Assembly (NCBI GenBank): GCA_002441425.1
Contig: DJWB01000001.1
Span: 224,602 to 288,601 of the forward strand
DNA: 64,000 nt
Source of the DNA: Patescibacteria group bacterium UBA6241
Lineage (GTDB): Bacteria; Patescibacteriota; Minisyncoccia; Phycocordibacterales; Phycocordibacteraceae
Direction: 5' to 3'
The translations under genes were made by a program, and so were the position numbers. The notes below the pieces were generated by a model. The model saw only the letters and a program-made list of their open reading frames with translations. It was not told the DNA's origin and searched no databases. Positions 1-42,944 of the stretch are shown here, piece after piece. Position 1 is the first letter of the stretch; each line of letters starts with the position of its first letter.

Positions 1-425
1 ATTCAGAAGCAATGAGTATTGAGCGAGGTGTAGACCTTCTATGGAAGAAGGTTCGTAAGACTATTTCTGGTCCCGGTTTTCTTATTGGAGTGCCGGTATA
101 CCTAGAGCCTTTAGCAAAGAGATCAGAACAGAACCCTGCAGTTGTAGAGCGTTTCCAAATTATTCTCGCAGGAAGTGAGATGGGGAAAGGATTCAGCGAA
201 CTCAACAATCCTATTGATCAGCGCGAACGGTTTATGAAGCAGCAAGCCCTGCGTGATGCAGGAGATGCCGAAGCGCAAATGGCAGACATGGAATTTGTTG
301 AGGCTCTTGAGTACGGAATGCCACCTGCATTTGGATTTGGTCTTTCAGAAAGACTTTTTAGTTTCCTTATGAATATGGATGTGCGCGAGGCGCAACTGTT
401 CCCGCTCATGCGTCCAAAAGAGTAG
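1..425 (+). CDS. lysS: Lysyl-tRNA synthetase (class II), C-terminal fragment; 5' end lies upstream of window
   Basis: Frame is open from nt 3. C-terminal class IIb motifs ERFQIILAGSEMGKGFSELNNP and GFGFGLSERLFSFLMN...LFP match LysRS motif 2/3 region. Confidence 0.8.
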   Translation, partial: SEAMSIERGVDLLWKKVRKTISGPGFLIGVPVYLEPLAKRSEQNPAVVERFQIILAGSEMGKGFSELNNPIDQRERFMKQQALRDAGDAEAQMADMEFVEALEYGMPPAFGFGLSERLFSFLMNMDVREAQLFPLMRPKE

Positions 426-462
426 GTTCAAAAGGGAGTGAATTTCCCTTATACTATATGTT

Positions 463-942
463 ATGAAAAAAATTATTACACTCACTAAAGGAACAGGCAC
501 CGGAGATACTAAAATTGGCGCGTTTGATGCCGCCTTATTTGATGCAGGTATAGCGAACTACAATCTAATTCGTTTATCTTCAATAATTCCTCCTGATTCA
601 GAAATACAGATTTGTAAGGCTGAGATACAGTCAGATGAGTTTGGTCATAAACTATATCTTGTATACGCCTCTCAAATTGAGAACGAAGCAGGAATGGATG
701 CATGGGCAGGAATTGGATGGGTGTTACAGCAAGAGGGAGATGGAAGAGGACTATTCACTGAACATGAAGGGCATAGTGAGCAAGAGGTTTCAAATCTCAT
801 AAATGAAACTCTCTCCTCTATGGTTCAGTACCGCCCAGAAACATATGGGGAGATTCAGAGCGTCACTACAGGTATAACTTGCACAGGAAAACCTGTATGT
901 GCTCTAGTTGCAGCAGTATATAAAGCGGAGGGATGGGAGTAA
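463..942 (+). CDS. pdaD: Pyruvoyl-dependent arginine decarboxylase
   Basis: The stretch GTGDTKIGAFDAALFDAGIANYNLIRLSSIIPP aligns closely with archaeal PdaD, including the SS self-cleavage site. Length is about 159 aa. Confidence 0.85.
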   Translation: MKKIITLTKGTGTGDTKIGAFDAALFDAGIANYNLIRLSSIIPPDSEIQICKAEIQSDEFGHKLYLVYASQIENEAGMDAWAGIGWVLQQEGDGRGLFTEHEGHSEQEVSNLINETLSSMVQYRPETYGEIQSVTTGITCTGKPVCALVAAVYKAEGWE

Positions 943-951
943 TACGTTTCC

Positions 952-1848
952 ATGATTGCAGAATTTCCAAACTTTAAGAAAATTGAACTTTCAGACAAAG
1001 AAAACGTTGATGCTCTCACAAAGGAATACCCTCCTTATTCTGATTTTGAGTTTGGGAGCCTTTGGGCATGGGATGTTAAGGAGGAGATGGCCTTATCTGT
1101 GCTTAATGGAAACCTGGTTGTTAAATTTACGGATTACACGACAGGGAATCCATTCCTAGCATTTTTAGGGAAGAACAAGGTTACCGACACAGCACGTGAA
1201 TTGCTTTCGTACTCTAAGAAAAATGGCTTTGAAGAGACACTTCATCTTATTCCAGAAACTGTAGCGAAGGGTCTAGACAAAGAACTCTTCTCTATTGAAG
1301 AGTCTCGGGACCATTTTGATTACGTGTGTGATATTAACCGTCACATAGAATACCCAGGGAAAGAGCTTAAATCCCAAAGGAATCTCCTTAAGATATTCAA
1401 GGATGCGAGTCCTGATTTTGAACAGGTATCTCTCATGATGGATACCAAGGAAGCACAACAAGAAGTTGTTGGTGTCTTGCGACGGTGGACTGAAGGCAAG
1501 GGATTTATTACAGATAGCGAGGCATTCGCATACGATCGTTTTATTTCAGGTGCATCATCACTTTCATACTCAGCGGTTGGCATACGCGTTGGCGCAGATC
1601 TTGTCGCATTCCATATTGTTAGTCTTCCTCCTGGGAATTGTGCGAATGCTCTTTTTGGCAAGGCTGACACCTCATATCGTGGTGTATACGCTGCTTTAGA
1701 TCATGTTGTGGCGAGAGATCTCCTTTCAAGAAATTATACACACATGAACATACAGCAAGATCTGGGAATAGAAGGTCTGCGAGCAGCAAAGCTTTCACTA
1801 CATCCCTCGCACCTACTTAAAAAGTATTCTGTGAGCTTGCTTGCATGA
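952..1848 (+). CDS. DUF2156 / aminoacyl-phosphatidylglycerol synthase (MprF C-terminal domain)-like protein, standalone soluble form
   Basis: About 298 aa with no TM segment. The C-terminal stretch DLGIEGLRAAKLSLHPSHLLKKY resembles the MprF synthase-domain end (FDLGVG...GLRRFKNKFAPEWRPHY). The N-terminal FEFGSLWAWD resembles the LFLYHWW region. Sits next to lysS. Confidence 0.5.
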   Translation: MIAEFPNFKKIELSDKENVDALTKEYPPYSDFEFGSLWAWDVKEEMALSVLNGNLVVKFTDYTTGNPFLAFLGKNKVTDTARELLSYSKKNGFEETLHLIPETVAKGLDKELFSIEESRDHFDYVCDINRHIEYPGKELKSQRNLLKIFKDASPDFEQVSLMMDTKEAQQEVVGVLRRWTEGKGFITDSEAFAYDRFISGASSLSYSAVGIRVGADLVAFHIVSLPPGNCANALFGKADTSYRGVYAALDHVVARDLLSRNYTHMNIQQDLGIEGLRAAKLSLHPSHLLKKYSVSLLA

Positions 1849-1873
1849 AGCTGATACACTAACTACTACATAT

Positions 1874-2791
1874 ATGACTTGGTTTCTAATTTCCCTCATT
1901 GGTCCGTTCCTGTACGCGATGACCAATTTTATAGATAAGACACTTCTTGAGAAGTACTTCAAGAGTGGAGGAGTGGGTACACTTCTTATCTTTTCTGCAC
2001 TCCTTTCAGGACTAGCACTTCCAATTCTGTTTCTTTTTGACCCCACAGTGTTTAGCGTTGGTCTTTTTAACATCTTAGTATTGGCCGCTGTTGGAATACT
2101 TAATGTGTTGGTTCTGTTCTTTTATTTAAAGGCTCTAGAGGATGAAGAGGCCTCAATTACAGTTGTTTTCTATCAGCTTGTTCCCGTATTTGCGTACGGA
2201 CTGGCCTACTTTATTCTTGGGGAGAGTCTTACCACAATTCAACTTATTGCTATGGCAATAGTTATATTTGGTACCTCTATCATTTCATTTGAGGTAGACA
2301 CGGAGAATAAGTTTAAGCTTAGGACGAAGACCATATTTTATATGGTCTCAGCGTCTTTCTGCTGGGCATTGGGATCAGTTATTTTCAAGGCCGTAGCTCT
2401 TGAAGAGCAGGTTGTGAGATCGCTTTTTTGGGAGCACCTCATGCTCACTATTATAGGTATTGGCCTATTCTTCTTTGTTCGTACCTACAGAGAGCATTTC
2501 ATTATCGCTGTTCGGCAGAACTCTGTGGCTATCTTCTCTCTCAATGTACTTAACGAGACACTGTACATGCTAGGGAACACTATATTTGCATTTGCATATC
2601 TGCTCGGACCAATAGCAGTAGTTCTACTTGCTGAGTCGTTCCAGCCTCTCTTTGCAATTCTTATTGGTGTATTTATGACAGTGTTCTTTCCTAGAATCAT
2701 TTCTGAAAAGATACATATTAAGCATCTGTGGCAAAAGGGAATCGCATTTGCAGTTACCTGCCTAGGAACCTACTTGCTATTTGCCTTTTAG
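1874..2791 (+). CDS. EamA/DMT-family membrane transporter (10 TM)
   Basis: Polytopic hydrophobic profile. Contains the EamA-like segment YLKALEDEEASITVVFYQLVPVFAYGLAYFILGESLT. The ATG at 1874 is the first ATG; the tool ORF begins at a TTG at 1841 that overlaps the upstream stop. Confidence 0.6.
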   Translation: MTWFLISLIGPFLYAMTNFIDKTLLEKYFKSGGVGTLLIFSALLSGLALPILFLFDPTVFSVGLFNILVLAAVGILNVLVLFFYLKALEDEEASITVVFYQLVPVFAYGLAYFILGESLTTIQLIAMAIVIFGTSIISFEVDTENKFKLRTKTIFYMVSASFCWALGSVIFKAVALEEQVVRSLFWEHLMLTIIGIGLFFFVRTYREHFIIAVRQNSVAIFSLNVLNETLYMLGNTIFAFAYLLGPIAVVLLAESFQPLFAILIGVFMTVFFPRIISEKIHIKHLWQKGIAFAVTCLGTYLLFAF

Positions 2792-2859
2792 TTTATCTAC
2801 ACTGTCAAAGATTGCGACCGCTAGGCCTGCTATAGTGAGTGTAAACGAACACGTATCCC

Positions 2860-3231
2860 ATGGGATTTAAAAAGCATCCAATTCTTTACATCATCTTGCC
2901 GCTTTGCGTTATTGCTATCGTGGCATCCTTTTACAGGTTTATGGTCCTTCGGGATTATATGGTTACTTATGAGGGCGTCTGCGATCCAGCTACACACAGC
3001 TGCTTCCTAGCATGCGTGGATGACTCTTGTTCAGAAACCTACTATTACTCTTTAGTACAAAAGAGAAGCCAAGATGTGATGGCTCAGTGCGGCCCCGATA
3101 TTACTGATTGTGAGCTCGCAAGTGTGTGCGTGGAATCTGACAGAGAATGCTCAATTGAGTACTGTGATTCTTCAGTAGATACTTGTGTTGGAGGCAATGC
3201 TCCAGCACCTTTGGAACTTATGCCTCAATAA
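2860..3231 (+). CDS. Small N-terminally membrane-anchored cysteine-rich protein (hypothetical)
   Basis: N-terminal TM helix followed by about 14 Cys in 90 aa. Lies immediately upstream of a sensor kinase. Confidence 0.35.
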   Translation: MGFKKHPILYIILPLCVIAIVASFYRFMVLRDYMVTYEGVCDPATHSCFLACVDDSCSETYYYSLVQKRSQDVMAQCGPDITDCELASVCVESDRECSIEYCDSSVDTCVGGNAPAPLELMPQ

Positions 3232-3233
3232 GT

Positions 3234-4874
3234 ATGATCTGCCACTATTTCCCAGAACCCCTTTATTTCTTTTACGTAGCTGATCTACCGGGGATTCTTT
3301 ATTATTCCCACATTCCTGCGATTATTTTGGCTCTATTAACAGGAGTTTTTGTACTCCTGAGTGACAGACACTCTCTTCTTAACAAGCTTCTTTTTGGACT
3401 CTGCCTTTCTTTCTCGTTATGGTCTCTCGGAACCCTTATCACATGGACAAACATTCATAGCGATATTCTTCTTTTTGTATGGTCTTTCCTTGGACCAATC
3501 GCAGCATTCATATCAGTACTTTCTATCTACTTCACATATGTTTTCCTGCAAAAGAAAGATGTGGGTCCAAAGCTAAAAGCCATCTTCATAGCACTGCTTG
3601 CGCCGATTCTTGTCTTTGCTGCGACTCCGTACACACTAAGCGGGTTTAATCTGTCAGTGTGTGATGCCTTTGGGTTTGAAGGTCCTGCAAATACTATCTA
3701 TTACCCAGCCCTAGGAGCTGTTGCGCTAGTTTGGATACTTATTCTTTTGATAAGACACTACTACAAAGCCCCTAAAAGCTTTAAATCACAGATCGTAATC
3801 ATGGGAACAGGAATTGAGCTCTTTCTCTTCTCATTCTTCACTATTGGCTTCTTGGGAACTTATTTAACAACTACAGGATTCTTGCCTGACTCTCAGATTG
3901 AGACCTATGGGTATTTCGGGATGATTGTGTTCATGGTCTATATAGGAGTGCTTATAGTTAGGTTTAAGGCCTTCCATGCTGGGCTTATTGCCGCACAAGC
4001 TCTCATTGTTGCGCTCATAATTCTTATTGGTGCTCAGTTCACCTTTGCGAGAAGCACAACCAATCTCACCTTGAATGCAATTGCGTTCTTCTTGACCACT
4101 GTTATTGGATACATTCTCATTAAAAGCGTTAAACGAGAAATAGAGCAGAGAGAGCACATTGAGTTGCTCGCAAAAGATTTGGAGAAATCTAACAGCCAAC
4201 AGATTATCCTTATTCATTTCATTACGCACCAGATTAAGGGATTCGTCACAAAGTCGCGAAACATCTTTGCAACAGTATTGGATGGAGATTATGGAGCCGT
4301 TCCCGAGTCTGTTAAGCCAATGTTGCAAGAGGGTCTCAATTCAGACACAAAGGGTGTTGCGACAATTCAAGAGATTCTTAATGCAGCAAATATTAAGAGT
4401 GGAAAAGTTACGTACGAGAAGCAGGAGATTGACCTTAAAGAACTTGTTGATTCTATCGCAGGGGAATTGAGAGCAAACGCCGACAAGAAAGGACTTACGT
4501 TTACGGTTGAGACTGGAGATGTTCCACTTATGTATTCTGGAGATCGCATGCAGCTCACTAATGCATTTAAGAACCTTATAGACAACTCAATTAAGTACAC
4601 ACCTTCTGGAGAAGTACATGTTTACTTAAGTGAAAAAGAAGGAAGAGTCCACTTTAGAATTACTGATACTGGTGTAGGCATTACCTCAGAAGACATGGAG
4701 CATTTGTTTACTGAGGGAGGACACGGCAAAGATTCTGCGAAGGTAAACGTTGAATCCACAGGATTTGGTCTCTACATCGTGAAGAATATTATTGAGGCTC
4801 ACCACGGGAAGGTCTGGGCTTCTTCAGATGGCGCCGGGAAGGGGGCAAGCTTCATTGTTGAGCTCCCGAAGTAG
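3234..4874 (+). CDS. Membrane sensor histidine kinase (multi-TM sensor domain, HisKA + HATPase_c)
   Basis: About 8 N-terminal TM helices. H-box HFITHQIKGF. G-boxes DTGVGIT and GFGLYIVKNIIEAHHGKVW. The ATG at 3234 follows the upstream stop at 3229-3231. No adjacent response regulator is present. Confidence 0.7.
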   Translation: MICHYFPEPLYFFYVADLPGILYYSHIPAIILALLTGVFVLLSDRHSLLNKLLFGLCLSFSLWSLGTLITWTNIHSDILLFVWSFLGPIAAFISVLSIYFTYVFLQKKDVGPKLKAIFIALLAPILVFAATPYTLSGFNLSVCDAFGFEGPANTIYYPALGAVALVWILILLIRHYYKAPKSFKSQIVIMGTGIELFLFSFFTIGFLGTYLTTTGFLPDSQIETYGYFGMIVFMVYIGVLIVRFKAFHAGLIAAQALIVALIILIGAQFTFARSTTNLTLNAIAFFLTTVIGYILIKSVKREIEQREHIELLAKDLEKSNSQQIILIHFITHQIKGFVTKSRNIFATVLDGDYGAVPESVKPMLQEGLNSDTKGVATIQEILNAANIKSGKVTYEKQEIDLKELVDSIAGELRANADKKGLTFTVETGDVPLMYSGDRMQLTNAFKNLIDNSIKYTPSGEVHVYLSEKEGRVHFRITDTGVGITSEDMEHLFTEGGHGKDSAKVNVESTGFGLYIVKNIIEAHHGKVWASSDGAGKGASFIVELPK

Positions 4875-4895
4875 CCATCTGGTATACTCGTCTGC

Positions 4896-6146
4896 ATGAA
4901 CCTAGCAGAAGAGCTCTCGGCACGCGGACTGGTTGAGCACACCTCAGCACCTCTTGAAACTATTCTCAGTACTCCTCGTACTGTATATCTTGGCGTTGAT
5001 CCGTCTGCAGACTCAATGCAGGCAGGGAACTTAGTTGTGGTGCTTTTGATGAAAAGACTTGCAGATGCAGGACACAAAATAGTGCTTCTTGTTGGGGGTG
5101 GAACAGGGATGATTGGAGACCCAAGAGAATCTGGCGAGCGTTCTCTTTCAGATACTAAAACTATAGAACGGAACAAGAAGGCTATACGTGCTCAGATGCA
5201 GCAGATTATCGGGAAGAAAGTAACACTTGTAGACAACGCAGATTGGCTCCTCAAAGTTAAGCTTGTTGATTTCTTGCGTGATATTGGGAAGCATTTCTCA
5301 GTTAACGAGCTGATCAAGCGAGACATAATCAAAAGAAGACTAGAAACACCGGACGAGAGTATTTCATACACTGAGTTTGCATACTCTCTCCTTCAGGGAT
5401 ACGACTACTTGATTCTTAGCAGAGAAAAAGGAGTAGATCTTCAGGTTGGTGCTTCAGATCAATGGACAAATATACTTTCTGGAGTTGACCTCATACGCCG
5501 CAAAGAAGGGAAAGAAGCATATGCGCTAACTTGCCCGTTAGTTACTGACGCAAATGGAAAGAAGTTTGGAAAGTCTGAAGGAAATGCTGTATGGCTTGAT
5601 GGACACAAGACTTCTCCGTTTAGTTTTTACCAGTTCTGGCTTAATCAGCCTGACGAAATGGTTGAGAAGTACCTAAAGATGTATACCTTCATTCCTTTGG
5701 ATCAGATTGAAGAGATTCTAAGAGAGCATCGGAATAATCCAGGAGCCCGCGAGGCTCAGGAAGCACTCGCAAGAAGTATTACGGAACTTGTTCACGGACC
5801 GGGCGCTACGGCCGCAGCCACAGCTGCATCAAGTGCGCTGTTTGGGAAGGAAGGGTTGTCTCATCTTCCTCGGGAGGCACGCTCAATGCTTCTTACGGAG
5901 GCGCCAAACCTTCATGTATTATCAAGCGATATCAAAAAAGGACTTAACGTCCTTGATGTGCTAGCGACAAGTCCGCTTGTTACCTCAAAATCTGAGGCCC
6001 GACGCCTTATTGAAGCAAAGGGTATTTCTCTAAACGGGACTCAAGTATCCGAGGTAGACCAGCTGCTTACAGAGGGAGACTTTTCAGACGGAATAGCGCT
6101 CCTCAAGAAGGGAAAGAGGGATGTGCTCGTTCTTGTTTTGAAATAG
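4896..6146 (+). CDS. tyrS: Tyrosyl-tRNA synthetase with C-terminal S4 domain
   Basis: Global alignment to bacterial TyrRS (DPSADS..., AGHKIVLLVGGGTGMIGDP, KFGKS as KMSKS). The HIGH motif is replaced by MQAGN. Confidence 0.9.
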   Translation: MNLAEELSARGLVEHTSAPLETILSTPRTVYLGVDPSADSMQAGNLVVVLLMKRLADAGHKIVLLVGGGTGMIGDPRESGERSLSDTKTIERNKKAIRAQMQQIIGKKVTLVDNADWLLKVKLVDFLRDIGKHFSVNELIKRDIIKRRLETPDESISYTEFAYSLLQGYDYLILSREKGVDLQVGASDQWTNILSGVDLIRRKEGKEAYALTCPLVTDANGKKFGKSEGNAVWLDGHKTSPFSFYQFWLNQPDEMVEKYLKMYTFIPLDQIEEILREHRNNPGAREAQEALARSITELVHGPGATAAATAASSALFGKEGLSHLPREARSMLLTEAPNLHVLSSDIKKGLNVLDVLATSPLVTSKSEARRLIEAKGISLNGTQVSEVDQLLTEGDFSDGIALLKKGKRDVLVLVLK

Positions 6147-6174
6147 TCGGGAGGTATCGTATACTCGCCCTATT

Positions 6175-6260
6175 GCGTCGGTGGCAGAGTGGTCAATTGC
6201 AATTGGCTGTAAACCAATCGGATTTATCCTACGTAGGTTCGAATCCTACCCGGCGCACCA
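6175..6260 (+). tRNA. tRNA-Tyr (anticodon GTA), long variable arm, encoded CCA
   Basis: Cloverleaf built by hand: acceptor gcgtcgg/ccggcgc, anticodon loop ctGTAaa, 14-nt variable arm, T-loop ttcgaat, 3' acca. Confidence 0.9.
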
Positions 6261-6350
6261 AAAAGGCACTCTTCAAAAGGGGTGCTTTTTGCGTAAATAG
6301 GCATATACTCTTCCTTAGATCATGGCCGCTACTGGCACTGGTCTTTTGTA

Positions 6351-6896
6351 TTGGAGGAGGGAACTGTGGAGCTTCCACGACTAGTACTGCTAACAACGCG
6401 AGGGAAGGCAAGTCTCGTTGCAGAACGGGATCGCCTGAAATCTGAGTTGCGGACGATTCGCGAGAATCGGCCGTCGCTTGATGCCCGCTCCCCTGGGAAC
6501 ACCAGCAGCGGGACTCGCATGGCGGGCGAAAATGCCCGGCAAGAGGACCTCTACCTGCAACGCGTAGAGGAAATCCAGCATATTCTGAGCGTTGCGCAAA
6601 CTGCGCCGAAACCGAAAGGGGTAAAGACGGTTCAAATCGGGCACATCATAACTCTGTGTTATGCCTCATGGGTTGAAAAAACCCCTGGGGGTCCGAAGAC
6701 CTCTCGCCGCACGCGCAGGTACTACGAAATCGTTGGCTTCCGCGAGGGAGACTGCGATACGACGCCAGCACGTCTCTGCTACGAGGCGGGCCTGGCGAAA
6801 CATTTCGTGGGGGAATCCAAGGGCCACAAGGTCCTGGTGCGCATGGATGGAGAAGTCCGTCCGGTTACCCTCACCAACATCAAGATGCCCAAGTAG
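6351..6896 (+). CDS. GreA/GreB-family (Gfh/Rnk-like) transcription factor paralog on a GC-rich cassette
   Basis: C-terminal FKBP-like region YYEIVGFREGDC...GLAKHFVGESKGHKVLVRMDGEVRPVTLTNI parallels the GreA C-terminus. N-terminal coiled coil. The tool start is TTG 6351; the likelier start is GTG at about 6366, after GGAGGAGGG. GC-rich with GC3-rich codons, unlike the flanking genes. Confidence 0.55.
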   Translation: MEEGTVELPRLVLLTTRGKASLVAERDRLKSELRTIRENRPSLDARSPGNTSSGTRMAGENARQEDLYLQRVEEIQHILSVAQTAPKPKGVKTVQIGHIITLCYASWVEKTPGGPKTSRRTRRYYEIVGFREGDCDTTPARLCYEAGLAKHFVGESKGHKVLVRMDGEVRPVTLTNIKMPK

Positions 6897-6972
6897 GGAG
6901 GACCTGGGCAAGTAAAGCGCCATCTCGTAGAAAGCGGGGTGGCGTTAGTGTGTATATGGTATCGTACTAGCA

Positions 6973-7929
6973 ATGGAATCAGACAAGCCTATTTTGCTCT
7001 CAGGTATCAAACCAACAGGGACCCCCCATATTGGCAATTACTTTGGTGCACTTCGTCAATTTGTAGAATTTCAAACTATTGGCACCCATCAGTGCTATTT
7101 CATGATTGCGGACTACCACGCATTAAACTCAGTCCAGAACGCAGGCCAGATGAGAGAGCTAACTAAGGAGCTTGTTTTAACGTTCTTAGCTATAGGACTT
7201 AATCCAGACAAGGTAGTTATCTTTAAACAGTCTGATGTGCCTGCACACACGGAGCTTGCATGGATTTTTGACACCATCACTACGGTTCCATACCTTATGC
7301 GCGCACATGCATACAAGGATGCAGAAGCAAAAAAGCATGAAATATCTGTAGGCACTTTTAACTATCCAATGCTCATGGCTGCAGATATTCTTTTGTATAA
7401 CGCAGCGAGAGTACCGGTTGGACAGGATCAGAAGCAACATATTGAATACGCGAGAGATACTGCCGAGAAGTTCAACCGTATTTATGGAGAAACCTTTGCG
7501 GTTCCTGAGGAATACATTGTTCCTGACGTTGCTATTGTCCCTGGAATTGACGGGCAAAAGATGAGCAAGAGTTACAACAACACGATCCCTCTCTTTGCGA
7601 GCCGTTCAGAAATTGAAGAGCTAGTTATGAGTATTGTTACAGACTCTTCAGGAGACCGACCTGAGAATGTGTATCAAATGCATAGACTACTCAAGTCTGA
7701 GCATGATTTGGTACCTGTATACGAAGAACATAAAGGAAAGTACAAAGCATTGAAGGAAGCACTCATAGAAGATCTTGATGCGTTCATAAAACCGATGCGA
7801 GAAAGATATGCAGAACTTGCTGCAAATCCTAAGATTGTCTCGGAAACTTTGGAAAAGGGAGCAGAGTTCGCGCGAGCACGTGCTGAGGAGAAAATTGAAG
7901 AGGTACGCAGGGCAGTTGGGGTTGCATAA
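6973..7929 (+). CDS. trpS: Tryptophanyl-tRNA synthetase
   Basis: Motifs GIKPTGTPHIGNYFGAL and KMSKS. Length 318 aa. Confidence 0.9.
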   Translation: MESDKPILLSGIKPTGTPHIGNYFGALRQFVEFQTIGTHQCYFMIADYHALNSVQNAGQMRELTKELVLTFLAIGLNPDKVVIFKQSDVPAHTELAWIFDTITTVPYLMRAHAYKDAEAKKHEISVGTFNYPMLMAADILLYNAARVPVGQDQKQHIEYARDTAEKFNRIYGETFAVPEEYIVPDVAIVPGIDGQKMSKSYNNTIPLFASRSEIEELVMSIVTDSSGDRPENVYQMHRLLKSEHDLVPVYEEHKGKYKALKEALIEDLDAFIKPMRERYAELAANPKIVSETLEKGAEFARARAEEKIEEVRRAVGVA

Positions 7930-8021
7930 GTTATCCCAAAGGGGATATTTACAGATATAGCACCTGTGGTATAGTTCGCGCGTGGCAACAAGTCCACGTC
8001 TGAACCTTAGGGAGGTTCGCC

Positions 8022-8285: not shown

Positions 8286-9635
8286 ATGGAACGGACACTA
8301 ATTGGCGAGCTTTCCGCACACAAAGGAAGCGAGATTTGCATACAAGGATGGGTTGACGTGCGCAGAGACCAAGGGAAACTTGTCTTCTTTGATTTCAGAG
8401 ACAGGAGCGGGATTGTGCAGGGTGTAGTACTTCCAGGAGATGAGAGTCTTATGGAGATAGCTAAAACTGTCCGTACAGAAGCAGTTGTATCTGTGCAGGG
8501 AATTGTTAACGAACGTCCAGAGCGTAACGTACAGGCAGATAAGCTAAACGGAGATATTGAACTTGAAATCAAACGAATAACTATTCTTGCACTCCCACAG
8601 ACTCTTCCATTTGAGCTAGACGCAGAACTTAATCTTGATACGTATCTTGATTATCTCCCACTCACACTTCGCAGCGAGCGCAGTCGCGCAATCTTTACTG
8701 TGCAGGCTGAGATTGTGCGCGCATACCGTGCATTCTTAAACCAGGAAGGCTTTACAGAGTTCCAAGCACCAAAACTTATCGGAGACGATGCTGAGGGCAG
8801 CGGAGAAGTTTTTGAAGTCCCATACTTCTATGGGAAGACTGCGCATCTTGCCACTTCACCTCAGTTGTACAAGCAGATTATGGTTGGGGCATTGGAGCGA
8901 GTCTTTTCTATTGGCATCGTATTCCGCGCTGAGAAGCACAGCACAACAAGACACTTGAATGAGTACACCTCTATGGATATGGAGATGGGCTTCATCAAGG
9001 ACCACACAGATGTCATGGCAGTTGAGAACAAGCTTATGCGCTATGTCTCTGCTGAGCTTGCTAAGAACTGCAGCAAAGAGTTTGCGCTTCTTAAGGCTGA
9101 GGTGCCTGAAGTTCCAGAACGTATCCCAAATCTAAAGTTGCGTGAGGCGCAGGAATTGATTTTTGCAGAGACTGGCAAAGATAAGAGAAATGAACCAGAT
9201 CTTGAGCCGGAAGACGAGCGTTGGCTCTGTGAATGGTCTAAGCGTGAGCACAACTCAGACTTTGTGTTCGTTACGCACTATCCTGTCTCAAAGCGTCCTA
9301 TGTACACCTTTGAAGATTCAACTGATCCGGGATATACAAACGGGTTTGATCTTTTGTTCCGTGGCGTTGAGATAACTACAGGAGGGCAGCGTAGACATGA
9401 CTACGAGAATCTTATTGAAGGAATAAAAATGAAAGGTCTTGATCCTGAGAAGTTTTCTTACTATCTCCAGGCTTTCAAATATGGCATTCCACCGCACGGC
9501 GGATGGGGTATGGGTCTAGAGCGACTCACCGCAAAGTTCCTTAATCTTGCAAACGTTAAGGAGGCAACACTATTCCCACGAGATATTAACCGCATTGATA
9601 CTCGCCTTACGGAGAATGAACCAACTGAAGTATGA
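8286..9635 (+). CDS. aspS: Aspartyl-tRNA synthetase, short archaeal/type-2 form
   Basis: Motifs SPQLYKQ, FRAE, GGWGMGLERL. About 449 aa and lacks the GAD insertion. Confidence 0.85.
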   Translation: MERTLIGELSAHKGSEICIQGWVDVRRDQGKLVFFDFRDRSGIVQGVVLPGDESLMEIAKTVRTEAVVSVQGIVNERPERNVQADKLNGDIELEIKRITILALPQTLPFELDAELNLDTYLDYLPLTLRSERSRAIFTVQAEIVRAYRAFLNQEGFTEFQAPKLIGDDAEGSGEVFEVPYFYGKTAHLATSPQLYKQIMVGALERVFSIGIVFRAEKHSTTRHLNEYTSMDMEMGFIKDHTDVMAVENKLMRYVSAELAKNCSKEFALLKAEVPEVPERIPNLKLREAQELIFAETGKDKRNEPDLEPEDERWLCEWSKREHNSDFVFVTHYPVSKRPMYTFEDSTDPGYTNGFDLLFRGVEITTGGQRRHDYENLIEGIKMKGLDPEKFSYYLQAFKYGIPPHGGWGMGLERLTAKFLNLANVKEATLFPRDINRIDTRLTENEPTEV

Positions 9636-18106: not shown

Positions 18107-19540
18107 ATGTCTGTACGAACTCGTTTTGCTCCAAGTCCAACCGGATTCATACACGTAGGAAGTGCGCGCACTGCGTTGTATGCGTGGCTCTTTGCCAAAA
18201 AGCACGGAGGTCAGTTTGTTCTTCGCATTGAAGACACAGACAAGGCTCGTGAGGTTGAGGGTGCTATCGGGCACTTAATGGAGTCTCTTAAGTGGTTGGG
18301 TATTCAATGGGACGAGAGTATTGATGTAGGGGGTCCCTACGAGCCATACCTCCAATCTGCACGTATAGACTCACACCAAGATTACGCACGTCGCCTTATT
18401 GATGCGGGCTTTGCATATCCAGACCCCTATACGCCCGAAGAGGTAGACGTATTTAGGAAGAGGGCAGAGGAAGAGAAGCGACCGTTTCTATTCCGTGATC
18501 ATCGCCCTGACCAATTTGAGGAATGGGATGGTACGAAACCATTGCGCTTTAAAGTGCCGGTTATAAAGAGGTATGAGTGGGAGGATGTTGTGTTTGGAAC
18601 TCTCTCCGCAGGTGAGGAGGCTCTGGACGATTTCATTCTCATAAAGGGAGATGGCTACCCAACCTATAACTTTGCACATGTTATAGACGATATTGAAATG
18701 CGTGTTACGCACGTCATGCGCGGACAAGAATTCATATCTTCAACTCCAAAGTTCCTCTCGTTATATGACGCTCTTGGAGAGACACCACCTATTTTTGCAA
18801 CACTCCCTCCAATTCTTGGAGATCAAGGTACTAAGAAACTTTCAAAGCGAGACGGTGCGAAAGACATTCTTGAGTATCGTGACGAGGGATACTTGCCTGA
18901 AGCTATGATTAATTTCTTGGCGCTTCTTGGATGGAACCCAGGCGGAGAGAAAGAGATTTACACACGCAACGAACTTGTAGCCGCATTTGAACTTGAGCGT
19001 ATTCAGCGATCTGGCGCACGCTTTGACGAAGAAAAACTTTTGTTCATGAACAGAGAGCACATGCGTATGTTGTCTGATGAAGCGTTCATAGAGCGCGGAG
19101 GGTTAACGGCGCCTGACACTGCAAAATTAAAGAAAGCAGTTCCACTCCTTAAAGAAAGAACCCATACATTTGGAGAAGCGAAAGCTATGCTTGCAGGGGA
19201 GCTGGCTTGTCTGTGGGAAGCCCCAAAACTGGCCAAAGAGCTACTTATTGCCAAAGAGCCAGCAGAGCGCCCAGACCTTACTAAAACAGCCCTGGAGGCC
19301 ATTTTGGAGGCCCTAGACGGCATTCCAGAGAGCCTTTCTGTAGAGGAGGTGAAGGAGATCCTCATGCCTCTCGCAGACGCGGAAGAGGCGAAGGGGAAGG
19401 GAGGAAGAGGGGCAGTGCTGTGGCCAGCTCGGTACGCACTATCGGGTCTAGAAAAATCTCCAGACCCATTTATCTTGGTATCTATTCTTGGAACAGAGGA
19501 ATCTACTTCACGCCTACGCACTGCGCTTGCTATACTGTAG
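18107..19540 (+). CDS. gltX: Glutamyl-tRNA synthetase
   Basis: Motifs RFAPSPTGFIHVGSARTALY and KLSKRDGA. Confidence 0.9.
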   Translation: MSVRTRFAPSPTGFIHVGSARTALYAWLFAKKHGGQFVLRIEDTDKAREVEGAIGHLMESLKWLGIQWDESIDVGGPYEPYLQSARIDSHQDYARRLIDAGFAYPDPYTPEEVDVFRKRAEEEKRPFLFRDHRPDQFEEWDGTKPLRFKVPVIKRYEWEDVVFGTLSAGEEALDDFILIKGDGYPTYNFAHVIDDIEMRVTHVMRGQEFISSTPKFLSLYDALGETPPIFATLPPILGDQGTKKLSKRDGAKDILEYRDEGYLPEAMINFLALLGWNPGGEKEIYTRNELVAAFELERIQRSGARFDEEKLLFMNREHMRMLSDEAFIERGGLTAPDTAKLKKAVPLLKERTHTFGEAKAMLAGELACLWEAPKLAKELLIAKEPAERPDLTKTALEAILEALDGIPESLSVEEVKEILMPLADAEEAKGKGGRGAVLWPARYALSGLEKSPDPFILVSILGTEESTSRLRTALAIL

Positions 19541-25817: not shown

Positions 25818-26606
25818 TTAACAGGTTACATTCTTTACTATGTACTCGTATGCTTCGTCCACAGAATCAACAACCTGGAATAGGTTAAGGTCTGCCTCAT
25901 CAATGTTGTGATACTTAGCAAACAGATGGTTCTTAAAGAGATCAACTATTGGATCCCAGTAGTCTTTTCCGTACAGGACTATAGGAACTGGATTGATTTT
26001 CTTGGTCTGCACGAGCGTAAGAATCTCAGTAAACTCATCAAGCGTTCCGTATCCTCCCGGGAAATACACATAGACTTCAGACGCGAAGGCGAGCATCACT
26101 TTACGCACAAAGAAGTGATCAAACGTAAACGAGCTATTAACATATTTGTTAAGTGACTGATCGTCAGACAGTCTGATGTTTAGACCAATTGAAGACCCTC
26201 CCGCATCAAATGCTCCCTTATTCCCTGCCTCCATAATTCCGGCTGATCCACCTGTGATAACCGAGTACCCGTTCTTGGCGAGTTTTCCTCCGAGCTCAAC
26301 GGCTGCCTCGTAGTATGGATCTCCAGGCTGAGTACGCACGCTTCCAAAAAAGGTTGCAGTAAGTCCGAAATTCTTAAGAAGATCAAAGCCATCAACAAAT
26401 TCGGCCATGATCTTAAATACTCTCCAGCTCTCAAGCTTCTGAGGCTTACAGACAAGAGGCGCAGGATTCTCTGGAACATCGCGCTTCCCTTCTTCAATTA
26501 CGCGCGACAAAATTGAACCCATCTCATGTGCACGCTCTCGCGTATTTGAGTGATCAGGAATAGTAATGTCTCCTGTTGGTGTTGAAATTATCGGTTGGTC
26601 TCCCAT
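25818..26606 (-). CDS. LOG-family (TIGR00730) nucleotide 5'-monophosphate nucleosidase
   Basis: Motifs VITGGSAGIMEAGNKGA and YFPGGYGTLDEF. Confidence 0.8.
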   Translation of the reverse strand: MGDQPIISTPTGDITIPDHSNTRERAHEMGSILSRVIEEGKRDVPENPAPLVCKPQKLESWRVFKIMAEFVDGFDLLKNFGLTATFFGSVRTQPGDPYYEAAVELGGKLAKNGYSVITGGSAGIMEAGNKGAFDAGGSSIGLNIRLSDDQSLNKYVNSSFTFDHFFVRKVMLAFASEVYVYFPGGYGTLDEFTEILTLVQTKKINPVPIVLYGKDYWDPIVDLFKNHLFAKYHNIDEADLNLFQVVDSVDEAYEYIVKNVTC

Positions 26607-31534: not shown

Positions 31535-32998
31535 ATGTCTTGGTTTTCTCAGCTGTTTGCGCGTGCCCCAAAACCACTTACAAGCGACGCGCCGCTTTTT
31601 TTCACCAATACACTCACTGGGAAAAAGGATCTCTTTTCTCCCCAAACAGCGGGACAGGCGACCATGTATTCTTGTGGTCCTACCGTCTACAGCAAGGCTC
31701 AAATTGGAAATCTTCGCGCCTATATATTCTCTGATCTTATTGCACGAGTACTTTCTGAAAATGGATATCGTGTCCGTAGAGTTATAAACATTACAGATGT
31801 TGGACATCTGCAAGGAGACGGTGACGAAGGAGAGGACAAGATTGAAGCAGGAGCAAAGAAAGAGGGACTCAATGCTGAAGCAATTGCCACAAAATATACG
31901 AAACTCTTCGTTGACGATTTGTCTGATCTTAATGTAGATGTTGCACACATTCAGTTCCCTCGTGCTACAGAATATATAAAGGAACAGATTGCTATTATTA
32001 AACTCCTTGAAGAAAAGGGATTCACGTACCGCACCTCAGATGGAATTTATTTTGATACTGAAAAATACCCAAATTATGGTGCGCTAGATCATAGCGGACC
32101 TAAACTTAAAGAAGAAGCGTTCGCAGAGATTGGACGAAGAATAAAAACAAATAAGGATAAACAGCATCCCGCAGATTTTGCTCTTTGGAAGTTCTCTCCG
32201 CTAGGTGCGCGCAGACAGCAGGAGTGGAGTTCGCCTTGGGGTATCGGATTCCCTGGATGGCACATTGAATGTTCTGCAATGGCACGTGCACTCTTGGGAC
32301 AACCTATTGATATCCATACGGGCGGTATGGACCACATACCTGTGCATCACACCAATGAGATTGCGCAGTCTGAATGTGCATTCGGAAAACCTCTTGCACG
32401 CTTCTGGATACATGAAGCCTTCCTTACTCTCTCAGGAGAAAAGATTTCAAAGTCTTTGAATAACGATATATACCTCTCAGATATTATTGAGCGAGGATAC
32501 AGTCCGCTTGCATTACGATATTTTTTCTTGCAGGCACATTACCGCACTCCCCTCTCGTTCTCATGGGAAGCACTCGCTGCAGCGAATGAAGCATTAGAGC
32601 GACTGACAAAGCTTGCCCGCCGTATTAACGAAGAGGCAAAGTACAAGGCAACTCCTACAGACACGAGTCGCAGAGTTATTGCATTGTTGCGAGACGATCT
32701 TGCAACACCTGCAGCTCTTGGACTTCTATGGGAAGCGGTGCGTGACGAAGATATGGAGCGAACAGAACAGCTTGCCGTTATTCTTGCTGCAGATGCAGTG
32801 TTTGGACTTTCGCTGCTAGAACCAGCTCAGAAGATTGAAGTACCTGAAAATATTCAGAGACTCATAGAAAAGCGCGAAGAAGCACGGAAAAGTAGAGATT
32901 TTGCTACTGCAGACGCACTTCGTATCCACATAGCAAACAGTGGATATCATGTTGAAGACGGCCCTTCTGGCCCCATAGTCACCACCCGTCCTGGTTGA
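31535..32998 (+). CDS. cysS: Cysteinyl-tRNA synthetase
   Basis: Co-linear with E. coli CysRS (MYSCGPTVY, WHIECSAM, KISKSLNN). HIGH is replaced by QIGN. Confidence 0.9.
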   Translation: MSWFSQLFARAPKPLTSDAPLFFTNTLTGKKDLFSPQTAGQATMYSCGPTVYSKAQIGNLRAYIFSDLIARVLSENGYRVRRVINITDVGHLQGDGDEGEDKIEAGAKKEGLNAEAIATKYTKLFVDDLSDLNVDVAHIQFPRATEYIKEQIAIIKLLEEKGFTYRTSDGIYFDTEKYPNYGALDHSGPKLKEEAFAEIGRRIKTNKDKQHPADFALWKFSPLGARRQQEWSSPWGIGFPGWHIECSAMARALLGQPIDIHTGGMDHIPVHHTNEIAQSECAFGKPLARFWIHEAFLTLSGEKISKSLNNDIYLSDIIERGYSPLALRYFFLQAHYRTPLSFSWEALAAANEALERLTKLARRINEEAKYKATPTDTSRRVIALLRDDLATPAALGLLWEAVRDEDMERTEQLAVILAADAVFGLSLLEPAQKIEVPENIQRLIEKREEARKSRDFATADALRIHIANSGYHVEDGPSGPIVTTRPG

Positions 32999-41201: not shown

Positions 41202-42944
41202 ATGATATATACTTCCTATATCGCCTTAGCTTCACGGAATTCAACCATGTCAAATTTTAACGGTGCTCCGAGACAGTCTGATCCTCTGAAACAGGAGCAG
41301 TTCAATTCTGCGGAAGACAGCGCTTTCGACCAGGCGCGTGAACGCGTCCTTGCGAGAAATAGAGACTTTGTAGAAACCGACAAAAACAGAGAGGAATCAT
41401 TCTCTGCACCTCGAACCGTTCAGGAAGAGCAGGATGATATAGAATGGAAAAATTTGCTCCTAAACACCGAAGCTACACTCGGGAGCATTGGTAACCCAGA
41501 CCAACGTAAGTTACTACAAGCAAACCCTGTTATGGCAAATGATGCTACGTATTTCTTAGCATCACAGACTTCGAGCTGGATAGATAGTAGGCATCTTGCC
41601 AAGAATATTCCTGACGATGTTCAGGAAGTGTGGAGGAGTGCGGAAAAGGATGACCGAAAACTTTTTGTTGAGACCGGTAAGCGCCTTTATCCTGAAGTGG
41701 AGCTTTCGTCTAACAATGTTGATACGATTTTTGGAACCCTTAAGAACGATGCCATGAAGTTCAGTAGCAAGGAACTAAAAGATTGGCTTCAAGATTTTCC
41801 TGTGCATGGAGCTGCCAACAGTTCCATGAATGGAAGTCCTGATAAGTTCCTAAGTCAGGTTGAATCCTTTATTCAAAGAGGAGCGGACAGTATCGGGAGA
41901 GCACGCAAGAGCAGTGACCCTGTTACATCAATGGAAATCGCAGCCGTTGGAAAAGGTCTATACGCGCTCGAACTACTCAGACAAGATCTGGAGCAACGCG
42001 TCCAAGAGAGAAAGGAGCCAAAAATTCAACATGGTGCTCTTAATACTGATGAAGAACTTCGTCGCAAAGCTGCGGAGCTCAGTAAATTAAATATTAGTGG
42101 AGAAATGAGCGCAGACACCAAGGCAAAACTTGAGGCTCACAGAGCAAAAATGGGGCTGTCTGTTTCTCCCGAAGTGCAACAAGGAATTCCAGTTTCTGAG
42201 GTAGACCCAGTTCGACCAGAAGCTACCTCTGAAGAGCATCCAAACACCCCGCAAACGCCAGGAGAAAAATTCTTTGCAGCGAAGGAAGCGGAACTCAAGG
42301 GAAACATCCAGAGCTTCTTTGAAGAGGAGAACGCGGAGTTCTCAAAAGTAGAGGTAAGCGGTCCTGCTTTTGTTGAGAATCCTGAAAAGCTTGAGATGAA
42401 GAAGGATTCGCTTCAGAGGGCTGAAGCACTCGTAAAAAGACTTCTCGATCCTAAATCTGCTGAAGACATCCGGGACAACTGGTTGGAGAATATAGACGAG
42501 ACAAATAATCTTTCGCAGTTTTTTACTAATGCGCTGACAAAAGAGATTCAGGGCAGCAGAACTGCGCCAAAGGAAGGAGGCAGTAGGAATATTGCCAGCT
42601 CTCTATTTAAGGAAATCATTCACAAGCGCCTGTATCCTTACCTGTCACCGTTGCCGCCTGCAGCTACCCTAAGTTCCAGAGGATTCGAACAGTTTAAAAA
42701 CCCCGCTCTTAAATACTGGGGAGAATCACTTACTAATGATGGTTTGACGGTTAACGAACCGGAAGCCCTGTTAGAAAAACTTGAAAGTGCGATTACTCAC
42801 GCCGCAAGTCAATTAGAGCTCGCACAGAGCGATACAGTGAATCCTCCTACCTCACTGGAATTAAGAATGGTTGGAGAACGCATTTTAGGCATAGAGCTAC
42901 TTAGAAGTGCCATAAAACAAAAACTTGAGCTTAGGAATCAGTAA
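41202..42944 (+). CDS. Large acidic hydrophilic protein of unknown function (580 aa), cargo bracketed by IR1
   Basis: Long ORF with no TM segment and no recognisable catalytic motif. Glu/Lys-rich helical character. The alternative start is Met16. Confidence 0.5.
   Translation: MIYTSYIALASRNSTMSNFNGAPRQSDPLKQEQFNSAEDSAFDQARERVLARNRDFVETDKNREESFSAPRTVQEEQDDIEWKNLLLNTEATLGSIGNPDQRKLLQANPVMANDATYFLASQTSSWIDSRHLAKNIPDDVQEVWRSAEKDDRKLFVETGKRLYPEVELSSNNVDTIFGTLKNDAMKFSSKELKDWLQDFPVHGAANSSMNGSPDKFLSQVESFIQRGADSIGRARKSSDPVTSMEIAAVGKGLYALELLRQDLEQRVQERKEPKIQHGALNTDEELRRKAAELSKLNISGEMSADTKAKLEAHRAKMGLSVSPEVQQGIPVSEVDPVRPEATSEEHPNTPQTPGEKFFAAKEAELKGNIQSFFEEENAEFSKVEVSGPAFVENPEKLEMKKDSLQRAEALVKRLLDPKSAEDIRDNWLENIDETNNLSQFFTNALTKEIQGSRTAPKEGGSRNIASSLFKEIIHKRLYPYLSPLPPAATLSSRGFEQFKNPALKYWGESLTNDGLTVNEPEALLEKLESAITHAASQLELAQSDTVNPPTSLELRMVGERILGIELLRSAIKQKLELRNQ

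Follow-up and report, generated by a model that had tools for sequence, protein, structure and literature searches.

A conserved Patescibacteria gene unit joining an amine-forming decarboxylase and a soluble DUF2156 transferase with a small-solute transporter and a sensor kinase

Described relatives of the locus

To our knowledge, the well-characterised non-actinomycete PF09924 (DUF2156) enzymes all modify lipids (MprF, LysX, ErdS, and ErgS), a record that counts against the amine-directed function favoured below. The mycobacterial LysX is a fusion of LysRS with MprF, and the window analysed here (the whole stretch of 64,000 nucleotides) resembles this system in carrying a LysRS gene near a PF09924 gene. 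However, the two genes are unfused with pdaD in between, the LysRS is canonical, and the adjacency recurs in 2 of 47 related loci (see below). In contrast to MprF and the other aaPGS enzymes (L-PGS, A-PGS, LpiA), the DUF2156 protein of the window has no fused membrane domain, is acidic, and shows 9–14 % identity to them; a carrier of the DMT or PQ-loop fold accompanies it in place of the MprF flippase, and its neighbours are amine-forming decarboxylases.

Likenesses are also found among amine-handling systems. Bacillus subtilis blt-bltD and Escherichia coli SpeG serve polyamine acetylation and efflux, and AdiA/AdiC and AaxB/AaxC are decarboxylase/antiporter pairs, AaxB being a PdaD-type enzyme. 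As in the window, a GNAT-fold enzyme or an arginine decarboxylase is encoded beside an amine transporter, but the GNATs are single-domain, acetyl-CoA-dependent enzymes and the transporters belong to the MFS or APC families. We know of none among these systems that combines a decarboxylase, a tandem-GNAT transferase, and a carrier in one unit.

Soluble PF09924 enzymes acting on small amine-derived molecules are represented by VlmA and Ady7 of the valanimycin and azodyrecin pathways, which acylate their substrates with aminoacyl-tRNA supplied by a dedicated aaRS or by the cellular pool (PMC9379638). They constitute a precedent and thus support an amine-acylating role. Set against the description of VlmA, the window has a soluble PF09924 protein with a conserved decarboxylase neighbour. 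However, VlmA/Ady7 and the aminoacyl-tRNA-dependent amide synthases of Sbb17/Orf11 type belong to actinomycete secondary-metabolite clusters with N-hydroxylase and tailoring genes, and neither a flavin N-hydroxylase nor VlmB/O/R-like genes are present at our locus. The fungal ergosteryl-glycine synthase ErgS is likewise a freestanding PF09924 protein that lacks TM segments and modifies its lipid with the help of an unlinked aaRS (PMC8913301), but it is eukaryotic, uses a sterol as acceptor, and is accompanied by neither a decarboxylase nor a transporter.

The closest relative of known structure is BT_3689 (PDB 2HQY) from Bacteroides thetaiotaomicron, which a study of Helicobacter pylori reports with acetyl-CoA in its active site (PMC10700544); the same study implicates a Helicobacter DUF2156 protein (H. 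pylori HPB8_1270) in protein lysine acetylation. Both reports raise the possibility that the donor, and even the acceptor class, differ from those proposed below. BT_3689 differs from the Patescibacteria proteins in lacking their first-domain signature (YSDF at 29–32, DY at 61–62), which suggests a different acceptor, and its gene has no polyamine neighbours but lies near LrgAB, a GNAT, and pta-ackA. The branch is large, with more than 7,000 protein clusters (90 % identity) matching BT_3689 at E≤1e-10 among 8,000 candidates scored. Our literature search, covering Patescibacteria together with agmatine, BT_3689, or 2HQY, yielded nothing on the module beyond the H. pylori paper.

Gene content and conservation of the module

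The lysS 3' end, pdaD, the soluble PF09924/DUF2156 gene, and the EamA gene are packed closely on a 608-kb Patescibacteria contig, separated by 37, 9, and 25 nt, respectively (Table 1). An earlier note on this DNA had listed these four genes as a cluster and suggested a split aminoacyl-lipid system, and all of them are indeed present on the same strand, each with a match to its family. The conserved unit, however, extends past position 2791 to include the genes for a Cys-rich protein and a histidine kinase. Promoter-like sites within positions 1–8000 occur at chance level (12 versus 12.6 expected from shuffled sequence), and the lysS-pdaD intergenic site is therefore not above chance; terminator-like sites in the same region number 10 versus 5.9 expected, all of them weak. 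In the annotated parts of the window and its upstream flank, which cover roughly the 9 kb before the window and its positions up to 53,000, no agmatinase, SpeY, or further polyamine genes were seen.

Table 1. Features of the module and their family assignments
Feature	Position	Strand	Supporting match
lysS 3' end, class II lysyl-tRNA synthetase	1..425	+	PF00152 E=3.7e-19
pdaD, pyruvoyl-dependent arginine decarboxylase, 159 aa	463..942	+	PF01862 E=2e-29, 103 bits
Soluble tandem-GNAT transferase, 298 aa, BT_3689 (PDB 2HQY) subfamily	952..1848	+	PF09924/DUF2156 E=1.5e-18
EamA/DMT-family membrane transporter, 305 aa	1874..2791, from ATG 1874	+	PF00892 E=1.2e-12
Cys-rich protein, 123 aa, membrane-anchored, one N-terminal TM helix	2860..3231	+	TM scan
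Sensor histidine kinase, 546 aa, multi-TM	3234..4874	+	HATPase_c 6.5e-26, weak HisKA_7TM match

Conservation was assessed among 47 well-flanked related loci, i. e., those with at least 4 kb on both sides. A pyruvoyl-dependent decarboxylase lies within three genes of DUF2156 in 26 of them, EamA in 32, and EamA or the PQ-loop-fold protein TM198 in 35; for a histidine kinase, counted within five genes, the figure is 41. Some polyamine gene (PdaD, AdoMet_dc, a SpeA-like PLP decarboxylase, a deoxyhypusine-synthase-like protein (PF01916), or an arginase-family member) occurs within five genes in 31 of the 47, leaving about a third of the loci with none nearby. Same-strand gaps within the module are 5–19 nt at the median (5 nt for AdoMetDC-EamA, 8 nt for EamA-PdaD), and DUF2156 is the most constant member. 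The conserved unit thus unites a soluble DUF2156 transferase with an amine-forming decarboxylase, a transporter for small solutes, and a membrane-bound sensor kinase. Among the 80 loci collected, it is encountered in Paceibacteria, Microgenomatia, Saccharimonadia, Peregrinibacteria-like, and ABY1-type bins, in many lineages at the same position of a conserved backbone (dnaK-dnaJ ... aaRS genes ... cysS-corA-rplU); in these reduced genomes it is widespread and vertically inherited. That very small genomes have kept the unit across many classes makes it likely to be important for the host-attached lifestyle.

LysRS does not belong to this unit. The window holds the last ~140 codons of lysS, whose full gene on the source contig encodes 487 aa. 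The full-length protein passes the canonical lysS models (443.6 versus a TIGR00499 cut-off of 427.6; also PRK00484), whereas it reaches 426 bits of the 742 needed for the LysX model. Its gene adjoins DUF2156 in 2 of the 47 loci, namely in the window's own clade (L003, L087, L088) and in one other lineage (L075), and where it does so it forms part of the dnaK-dnaJ ... aaRS backbone. A dedicated partnership with LysRS was accordingly rejected, lysS being a neighbour on a housekeeping backbone outside the module, and the link to LysRS drawn earlier is not supported. The expectation of a conserved gene order held in part: decarboxylase, transporter, and DUF2156 stay together in dozens of species-level genomes, which exceeds a chance arrangement, but the adjacency of lysS is not recurrent.

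The decarboxylase, which the reading of the earlier note leaves without a role, is the most informative neighbour. The window's PdaD exceeds its PF01862 cut-off of 22.7 bits widely and retains the Ser-Ser self-cleavage site (LSSII); LSS(I/V) is kept in 12 of 13 PdaD neighbours, with LSSM in L019. Since it scores 75.6 and thus below the cut-off of the TIGR00286 equivalog (106.95), arginine is its presumed substrate and agmatine the predicted product. pdaD and DUF2156 form a conserved, closely spaced pair, and the same slot is elsewhere filled by an AdoMetDC-fold enzyme of unrelated fold, with at least five swaps on the DUF2156 tree. The exchange is also seen within the window's own backbone, where L087 and L088 carry PdaD and L089 an AdoMet_dc gene 8 nt upstream of DUF2156. 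Bona fide AdoMetDCs have one completely conserved Pro that is not conserved in ADCs (PMC10407285). Most AdoMetDC-fold neighbours (AESHISIHTFP...DVYTC) keep this residue, but display Phe and Tyr where bona fide SpeD1 sequences read Trp and Phe (PMC10407285, Fig. S5); a few are ODC-like (QFIETS). The NCBIfam AdoMetDC equivalog cut-off is passed by one of these neighbours and narrowly missed by another. In some genomes, homospermidine-pathway genes also adjoin the module.

The membrane partners are both solute-carrier folds. EamA, for which a TTG at 1841 is an alternative start, matches PF00892 over residues 13–149, with no separate match to this family detected for the second repeat, and a crude Kyte-Doolittle scan gives ~9–10 hydrophobic segments, in keeping with the 10-TM DMT transporter predicted earlier. 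It also shows a weak match (33 bits) to TIGR00950, 'carboxylate/amino acid/amine transporter'. The proposed pairing of DUF2156 with a DMT protein is borne out by the counts given above: EamA adjoins DUF2156 with a median gap of 15–17 nt (31 loci). Its placement varies between loci, before or after the other genes or on the other strand. Where EamA is absent, its place is taken by TM198, a 7-TM protein (AF2 pLDDT 87.5) that in fold comparison comes closest to SWEET, cystinosin, and the KDEL receptor. In three protein clusters TM198 is fused to DUF2156, the latter being C-terminal to the 7-TM domain.

The Cys-rich protein, which has no Pfam or NCBIfam match, is a partner of the kinase. Its gene is conserved between EamA and the kinase gene in ~12 loci; in the window, the kinase gene starts 2 nt downstream of it. 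The Cys-rich protein also occurs as the C-terminal part of the DUF2156 protein P0038. The N-terminal domain of the kinase has ~9 TM helices, and the orientation of the kinase block varies (divergent or co-directional). Two conserved neighbours, TM277 and s93, were considered as homologues of the window's kinase N-terminus or Cys-rich protein and rejected, as no homology was found; the kinase block thus comes in two architectural types. No Pfam families were found for TM198, TM277, and s93.

The DUF2156 transferase

The transferase matches PF09924 with 67.3 bits (cut-off 27.5) over residues 29–294, corresponding to model positions 7–297 of 298, and the same family matches all 32 aligned relatives. 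Its assignment to DUF2156 is thus significant over the full length, and no hydrophobic segment was found in its 298 aa, which agrees with the soluble, standalone protein described in the earlier note; homologues are mostly ~300 aa long. Its suggested resemblance to the MprF synthase domain, in contrast, did not hold up at the level of the subfamily. The family profile run against all PDB sequences has 2HQY as its sole match (2e-40), with no MprF, L-PGS, or A-PGS chain at E≤10; no alignment to solved MprF chains was obtained with either the single sequence or the profile, and the identity stated above for these domains stems from structural comparison. By full-length profile and structural match, the protein belongs to the freestanding BT_3689 (2HQY)-type subfamily.

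The AF2 model (pLDDT 94.9) contains two alpha/beta domains, with an overall architecture closer to aminoacyl-tRNA transferases than to acyl-CoA-dependent tandem GNATs. The helix between the domains (134–153) has a mean net charge of +4.2 over 32 sequences and an invariant R143, and K280 is invariant within a GLRxxK motif. Such a basic helix and invariant lysine are typical of aminoacyl-tRNA transferases. As to acetyl-CoA use, the beta4-alpha3 loop has the sequence KADTSYRG, in which the canonical Q/R-x-x-G-x-G/A motif cannot be recognised. Overall, the proteins carry an acidic net charge (−8 to −17 in five computed), and Asp, Tyr, Phe, or Trp account for many of the invariant residues in the first GNAT domain, features that would fit a cationic acceptor. 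The invariant acidic and aromatic positions include D31, W40, D61, Y62, D123, and Y124.

Candidate functions

Taken as a unit, the module points to polyamine-type amine modification and transport, not to a proven lysyl-lipid system. We tentatively favour a scheme in which PdaD makes agmatine, DUF2156 acylates it, transport of substrate or product falls to EamA, and regulation to the kinase. PdaD would decarboxylate arginine to agmatine in the cytoplasm, and the DUF2156 enzyme would move an acyl group onto this cationic amine. The donor would most likely be an amino acid from aminoacyl-tRNA of the cellular pool, or alternatively an acetyl group from acetyl-CoA; EamA may export the product or import the precursor amino acid, and the Cys-rich protein together with the multi-TM histidine kinase may control the operon. 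Gene identities, subfamily, fold, synteny, and the exchange of decarboxylase types are results of the analysis, whereas we infer acceptor, donor, and direction of transport. Amine acylation is weakened by the roughly one third of loci without a polyamine gene, by the Bacteroides gene context, by the AdoMetDC-fold neighbour that passes the true AdoMetDC cut-off, and by the lack of further polyamine genes in the annotated region. If the transferase does acylate the decarboxylase product, the translation machinery or acetyl-CoA would be newly linked to polyamine chemistry, and the large BT_3689-type DUF2156 branch would gain a function.

A broader version of this scheme, which we consider unlikely, assumes an ancient, vertically inherited Patescibacteria pathway in which DUF2156 diverts aminoacyl-tRNA to a polyamine-type amine, namely agmatine in the window and putrescine or a related amine in other genomes. 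The DMT or PQ-loop carrier would then export the cationic conjugate or display it at the surface, with a two-component system in control. No tRNA-dependent modification of a polyamine would have preceded such a pathway, which would also give a soluble bacterial PF09924 protein its first role in primary metabolism outside lipid modification.

The idea of the earlier note, taken without the link to LysRS, is quite unlikely: here the soluble DUF2156 protein would draw on the cell's aminoacyl-tRNA to aminoacylate a lipid of the membrane, be it PG, a glycolipid, or one scavenged from the host. The resulting cationic lipid would reach the outer leaflet through EamA or, in other genomes, the PQ-loop-fold protein; the kinase would regulate surface charge, and the polyamine genes would be co-regulated to serve the same charge-balancing purpose. 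Two-component regulation of mprF in staphylococci and the flipping of a lipid-linked cationic sugar by ArnE/F, members of the DMT superfamily, count in its favour, as do the full-length PF09924 match, the retained basic helix and invariant Lys, the precedent of ErgS, the conserved pairing with a membrane protein, and the fusions in which DUF2156 follows a 7-TM domain, a topology as in MprF. However, the failure of the family profile to match any solved MprF domain at the stated threshold, the low structural identity, and carrier partners of EamA and SWEET/cystinosin-like type, without the MprF flippase fold, speak against it. Moreover, a strongly acidic protein is poorly suited to dock onto anionic PG, the linkage to LysRS is not conserved, and the repeated in-place replacement of the decarboxylase is left without a reason. 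If it nevertheless applied, the module would show how lipid-scavenging bacteria tune their surface charge.

It is improbable that decarboxylase and transporter constitute an amino-acid/amine exchange (arginine in, agmatine out) that consumes a proton and builds membrane potential, as in AdiA/AdiC or the chlamydial AaxB/AaxC, with DUF2156 as an acetyl-CoA-dependent acetyltransferase that serves another or an accessory purpose, such as acting on protein lysines or detoxifying excess amine. Chlamydia pairs a PdaD-type enzyme with an antiporter, and the close, conserved decarboxylase-transporter adjacency, the weak amine-transporter signal of EamA, the reports on 2HQY and the H. pylori homologue, and the position of the Bacteroides orthologue beside pta-ackA and another GNAT all agree with such an exchange. 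Yet known amine antiporters are of the APC family, not DMT, and the constancy of DUF2156 and its occasional fusion to the membrane partner argue for a direct rather than an accessory role. The architecture of the enzyme also lies nearer to aminoacyl-tRNA transferases, and the homospermidine genes adjoining some loci are biosynthetic and not part of a catabolic exchange system (PMC13625781).

Finally, it is very improbable that the genes have no joint function and were inherited as a block of compact Patescibacteria genomes, as the shared backbone position, the demonstrably backbone-type lysS adjacency, and the chance-level lysS-pdaD promoter-like site might suggest: the unit survives rearrangement of EamA position and strand and of kinase-block orientation, it has repeatedly recruited decarboxylases of two unrelated folds to the same slot, and it includes fusions of DUF2156 with its membrane partner, patterns that passive synteny would not be expected to yield.

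The cluster and its DUF2156 protein

Six plus-strand genes, 2 to 68 nt apart, occupy positions 1-4874 of the window (see the table), among them all four that the earlier note had described there, encoding lysyl-tRNA synthetase (LysRS), PdaD, a DUF2156 protein and EamA. A search with PF09924 likewise bore out the DUF2156 assignment over essentially the whole model. A 608-kb metagenomic contig encodes an identical copy of this protein, and its closest named relatives are from Patescibacteria. Neither the DUF2156 nor the PdaD protein contains a hydrophobic segment.

Features of the window discussed in the text, with window positions
Feature	Position	Strand	Evidence or remarks
Class II LysRS, last ~140 codons	1-425	+	
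PdaD, pyruvoyl-dependent arginine decarboxylase	463-942	+	PF01862, E=2e-29; 'LSSII' self-cleavage site
PF09924/DUF2156 protein, 298 aa	952-1848	+	E=1.5e-18, 67 bits vs cut-off 27.5; near-whole model covered
EamA/DMT protein	1874-2791, or TTG start 1841	+	~9-10 hydrophobic segments (crude scan)
Cys-rich protein, 123 aa	2860-3231	+	one N-terminal TM helix
Histidine kinase	3234-4874	+	~nine N-terminal TM helices
Tyrosyl-tRNA synthetase	4896-6146		
tRNA-Tyr(GTA)	6175-6260		same strand as tyrosyl-tRNA synthetase
Asp/Asn-type synthetase	8286-9635		
Glu/Gln-type synthetase	18107-19540		
PF03641 protein	25818-26606	-	PF03641 ('Lysine_decarbox') and LDcluster4 match
CysRS	31535-32998		
580-aa ORF	41202-42944		no Pfam match
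Large serine recombinase	43271-44875		Resolvase, Recombinase, Zn-ribbon domains
tRNA-Glu(CTC)	44844-44916		strand opposite to recombinase

A confident AlphaFold2 model of the DUF2156 protein (32 relatives as input; pLDDT 94.9) matched known structures in three tiers, namely BT_3689 of Bacteroides thetaiotaomicron (PDB 2HQY; score 31.6, TM-score 0.85, 26% identity), then the aa-tRNA-dependent transferases L-PGS, LpiA, MprF, FemX, FemA, and Sbb17 (15-18; 8-12% identity), of which Sbb17 acylates an amine, and, after a clear drop, the acyl-CoA tandem GNATs MshD, VipF, ORF14, and MAB_4324 (at most 11.8). When the family profile was run against all PDB sequences, 2HQY was the only match (2e-40) and no MprF chain appeared even at E<=10, which places the protein in the BT_3689 branch of PF09924 and not in the MprF synthase branch.

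Two hallmarks of aa-tRNA transferases are kept: a basic helix between the two GNAT domains (mean net charge +4.2 over 20 residues; R143 invariant), in proteins that are acidic as a whole (net -8 to -17, five computed), and an invariant lysine, K280, within a C-terminal GLRxxK motif that, from reading the sequences unaligned, is taken as the counterpart of the FemX and MprF FK motif. Second-domain motifs are common to BT_3689 and the Patescibacteria family, while the first-domain invariants of the latter (YSDF 29-32, DY 61-62, D123-Y124, W40) are shared with BT_3689 in part only. This would fit a common donor chemistry and a family-specific acceptor, and the acidic and aromatic first-domain residues would suit a cationic one.

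Conserved neighbourhood and the place of lysS

Neighbours were compared across 80 loci encoding DUF2156 relatives in species-representative genomes (the 80 top-ranking among at least 560, the closest relatives of the query, mostly metagenome bins and some with doubtful taxonomic labels), using ORFs called by a simple longest-ORF rule and then clustered. Among the 47 loci flanked on both sides by 4 kb or more, a histidine kinase lies within five genes of the DUF2156 gene in 41, EamA within three genes in 32 (35 if the 7-TM protein TM198, see below, is accepted in its place), a pyruvoyl-dependent decarboxylase within three genes in 26, and any polyamine gene within five genes in 31. Same-strand gaps inside this module of decarboxylase, DUF2156 protein, membrane carrier and kinase have medians of 5-19 nt. 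The module survives rearrangement, with EamA either upstream or downstream or encoded on the other strand and the kinase block co-directional or divergent.

Of the four genes expected to co-occur in relatives, the decarboxylase and EamA thus do accompany DUF2156, but lysS does not, LysRS being within five genes in only 2 of the 47 loci. The full-length LysRS of the source contig scores above both canonical lysS cut-offs (TIGR00499, 443.6 vs 427.6; PRK00484, 504 vs 468) and well under that of the LysX model (426 vs 742). Two closer relatives (L087 and L088, 59-64% identity) have the order dnaK-dnaJ-ABC-lysS-pdaD-DUF2156-EamA-small protein-kinase-tyrS-trpS on a backbone wholly collinear with the window; in a third (L089, 52% identity) the backbone is recognisable, the site lacks lysS and EamA, and an AdoMet_dc-family gene, 8 nt ahead of DUF2156, stands in PdaD's stead. 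The module's position in many lineages is between dnaK-dnaJ on one side and cysS-corA-rplU on the other. The rare adjacency of lysS is therefore a matter of backbone synteny rather than functional pairing, and the proposed LysX-style link finds no support.

The region around the cluster is housekeeping in character (ribosomal proteins, grpE-dnaK-dnaJ, six aaRS genes, peptidoglycan genes). The six aaRS genes (LysRS, TyrRS, TrpRS, Asp/Asn-type, Glu/Gln-type, CysRS) fall within 33 kb (1-33000), and partly because of this density an aaRS beside any gene here carries little weight. The tyrosyl-tRNA synthetase gene and its cognate tRNA gene adjoin, 28 nt apart.

Between DUF2156 and the kinase, most loci (52 related loci, e.g. 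L005 8903-10128) encode a ~277-aa multi-TM and a ~93-aa soluble protein, sometimes fused to give ~385 aa; neither has a Pfam match or homology to the window kinase N-terminus or the Cys-rich protein. Also conserved is the pair of a Cys-rich anchored small protein, for which no family was found, and a multi-TM histidine kinase that follows after 2-4 nt or overlaps it (window 2860-4874; loci L016, L027, L039, L048, L053, L057, L060, L064). In protein P0038, the C-terminal part of the DUF2156 protein is the Cys-rich small protein (30% identity, E=1e-11).

Decarboxylase and membrane partners

PdaD serves as the decarboxylase in 13 loci in all, both copies of the window itself (L001 and L002) included, and a class 1b AdoMetDC-fold protein in 25 (PF02675, E=4e-26). 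On a quick neighbour-joining tree of DUF2156, PdaD-linked and AdoMetDC-linked members are interleaved, with at least five sister-level switches (e.g. L041/L054, L019/L021, L004/L001). That two unrelated pyruvoyl decarboxylases were repeatedly recruited to one slot argues for a functional tie between amine-forming decarboxylation and the DUF2156 gene. Within the candidate phyla radiation, proteins of the AdoMetDC fold have turned out to be ornithine decarboxylases that arose by neofunctionalisation, and the fold also has members that are arginine decarboxylases (PMC10407285). In several genomes, the module abuts genes for a SpeA-like PLP decarboxylase, a deoxyhypusine-synthase homologue (PF01916, 2e-38), and an arginase-family protein (PF00491, 2e-55), the same set as in a recently described agmatine-dependent homospermidine route (PMC13625781). 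In a few loci (L007, L043, L023, L046), EamA and DUF2156 are separated by a gene for a MetK-like SAM synthetase or for a SAM-dependent methyltransferase resembling PrmA, a hint at a possible role of SAM or its decarboxylated form in AdoMetDC-fold versions of the module. The organism's polyamine and lipid genes were surveyed within the window and about 9 kb upstream; the PF03641 gene, which we take to belong to the LOG family (nucleotide phosphoribohydrolases) and to encode no decarboxylase, is not counted as a polyamine gene.

The usual membrane neighbour is EamA, replaced in seven loci by TM198, a 7-helix protein of 190-200 aa without a Pfam family (e.g. loci L009, L015, L018, L022, L055, L062; proteins P0040, P0043, P0050, P0241-P0255). 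The 13 best PDB matches of its AlphaFold2 model (pLDDT 87.5) are SWEET13, cystinosin, and KDEL-receptor structures only (TM-scores 0.45-0.63, with modest E of 0.02-0.3), and a PQ-loop/SWEET/cystinosin-like fold is predicted, of which full-length 7-TM members are unusual in bacteria. EamA and TM198 are both small-solute carrier folds and neither resembles the flippase domain of MprF. In three protein clusters, a TM198-type protein is fused to the DUF2156 N-terminus, which indicates that the transferase works at the membrane, adjoining the carrier.

Acyl donor, proposed function and alternatives

According to one paper, on H. pylori RNase J, the 2HQY active site contains acetyl-CoA, and a Helicobacter DUF2156 protein is implicated in lysine acetylation (PMC10700544). 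In Bacteroides (L083/L084), the unit that contains the BT_3689 orthologue has the order lrgA-lrgB-DUF2156-GNAT (Acetyltransf_9) and adjoins pta-ackA in divergent orientation, a further pairing of a BT_3689-branch DUF2156 protein with a membrane transporter, beside acetyl-CoA/acetyl-phosphate metabolism. The acetyl-CoA, the acetylation link and the pta-ackA neighbours count against aa-tRNA as donor, which we still favour slightly over acetyl-CoA.

The best-supported reading, put forward tentatively, is a three-step unit of amine formation, acylation and carriage under two-component control: the decarboxylase would produce a cationic amine (in the window, agmatine), the DUF2156 enzyme would acylate it, and the carrier would move precursor or product. 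If acetyl-CoA were the donor, the precedents would be polyamine acetylation-and-efflux pairs. The closest functional precedents are VlmA and Ady7, soluble PF09924 enzymes as here, which aminoacylate small amine-derived molecules (for valanimycin, the amine is the decarboxylase product) with aa-tRNA from a dedicated aaRS or just the cellular pool (PMC9379638, PMC12945691). What stands, judged from sequence, is a widespread, uncharacterised Patescibacteria module in which amine formation and solute transport would be coupled to a transferase of the MprF family.

Lipid modification as originally suggested, now without LysRS, seems unlikely: lipid-modifying enzymes are known among freestanding DUF2156 proteins (ErgS) and the TM198-DUF2156 fusions have a suggestive, MprF-like topology, but the decarboxylase linkage, the solute-carrier partners, and the acidity of the DUF2156 protein would be left unexplained. 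Exchange of arginine for agmatine, with the DUF2156 protein as an accessory acetyltransferase, is less probable still. Passive synteny, the least plausible explanation, is hard to square with the rearrangements, in-place decarboxylase replacements, and fusions.

Elsewhere in the window, the 3' end of a large serine recombinase gene, preceded by the 580-aa ORF, overlaps the opposite-strand tRNA-Glu(CTC) gene, and this stretch (41202-44916) may mark the boundary of an integrated element.
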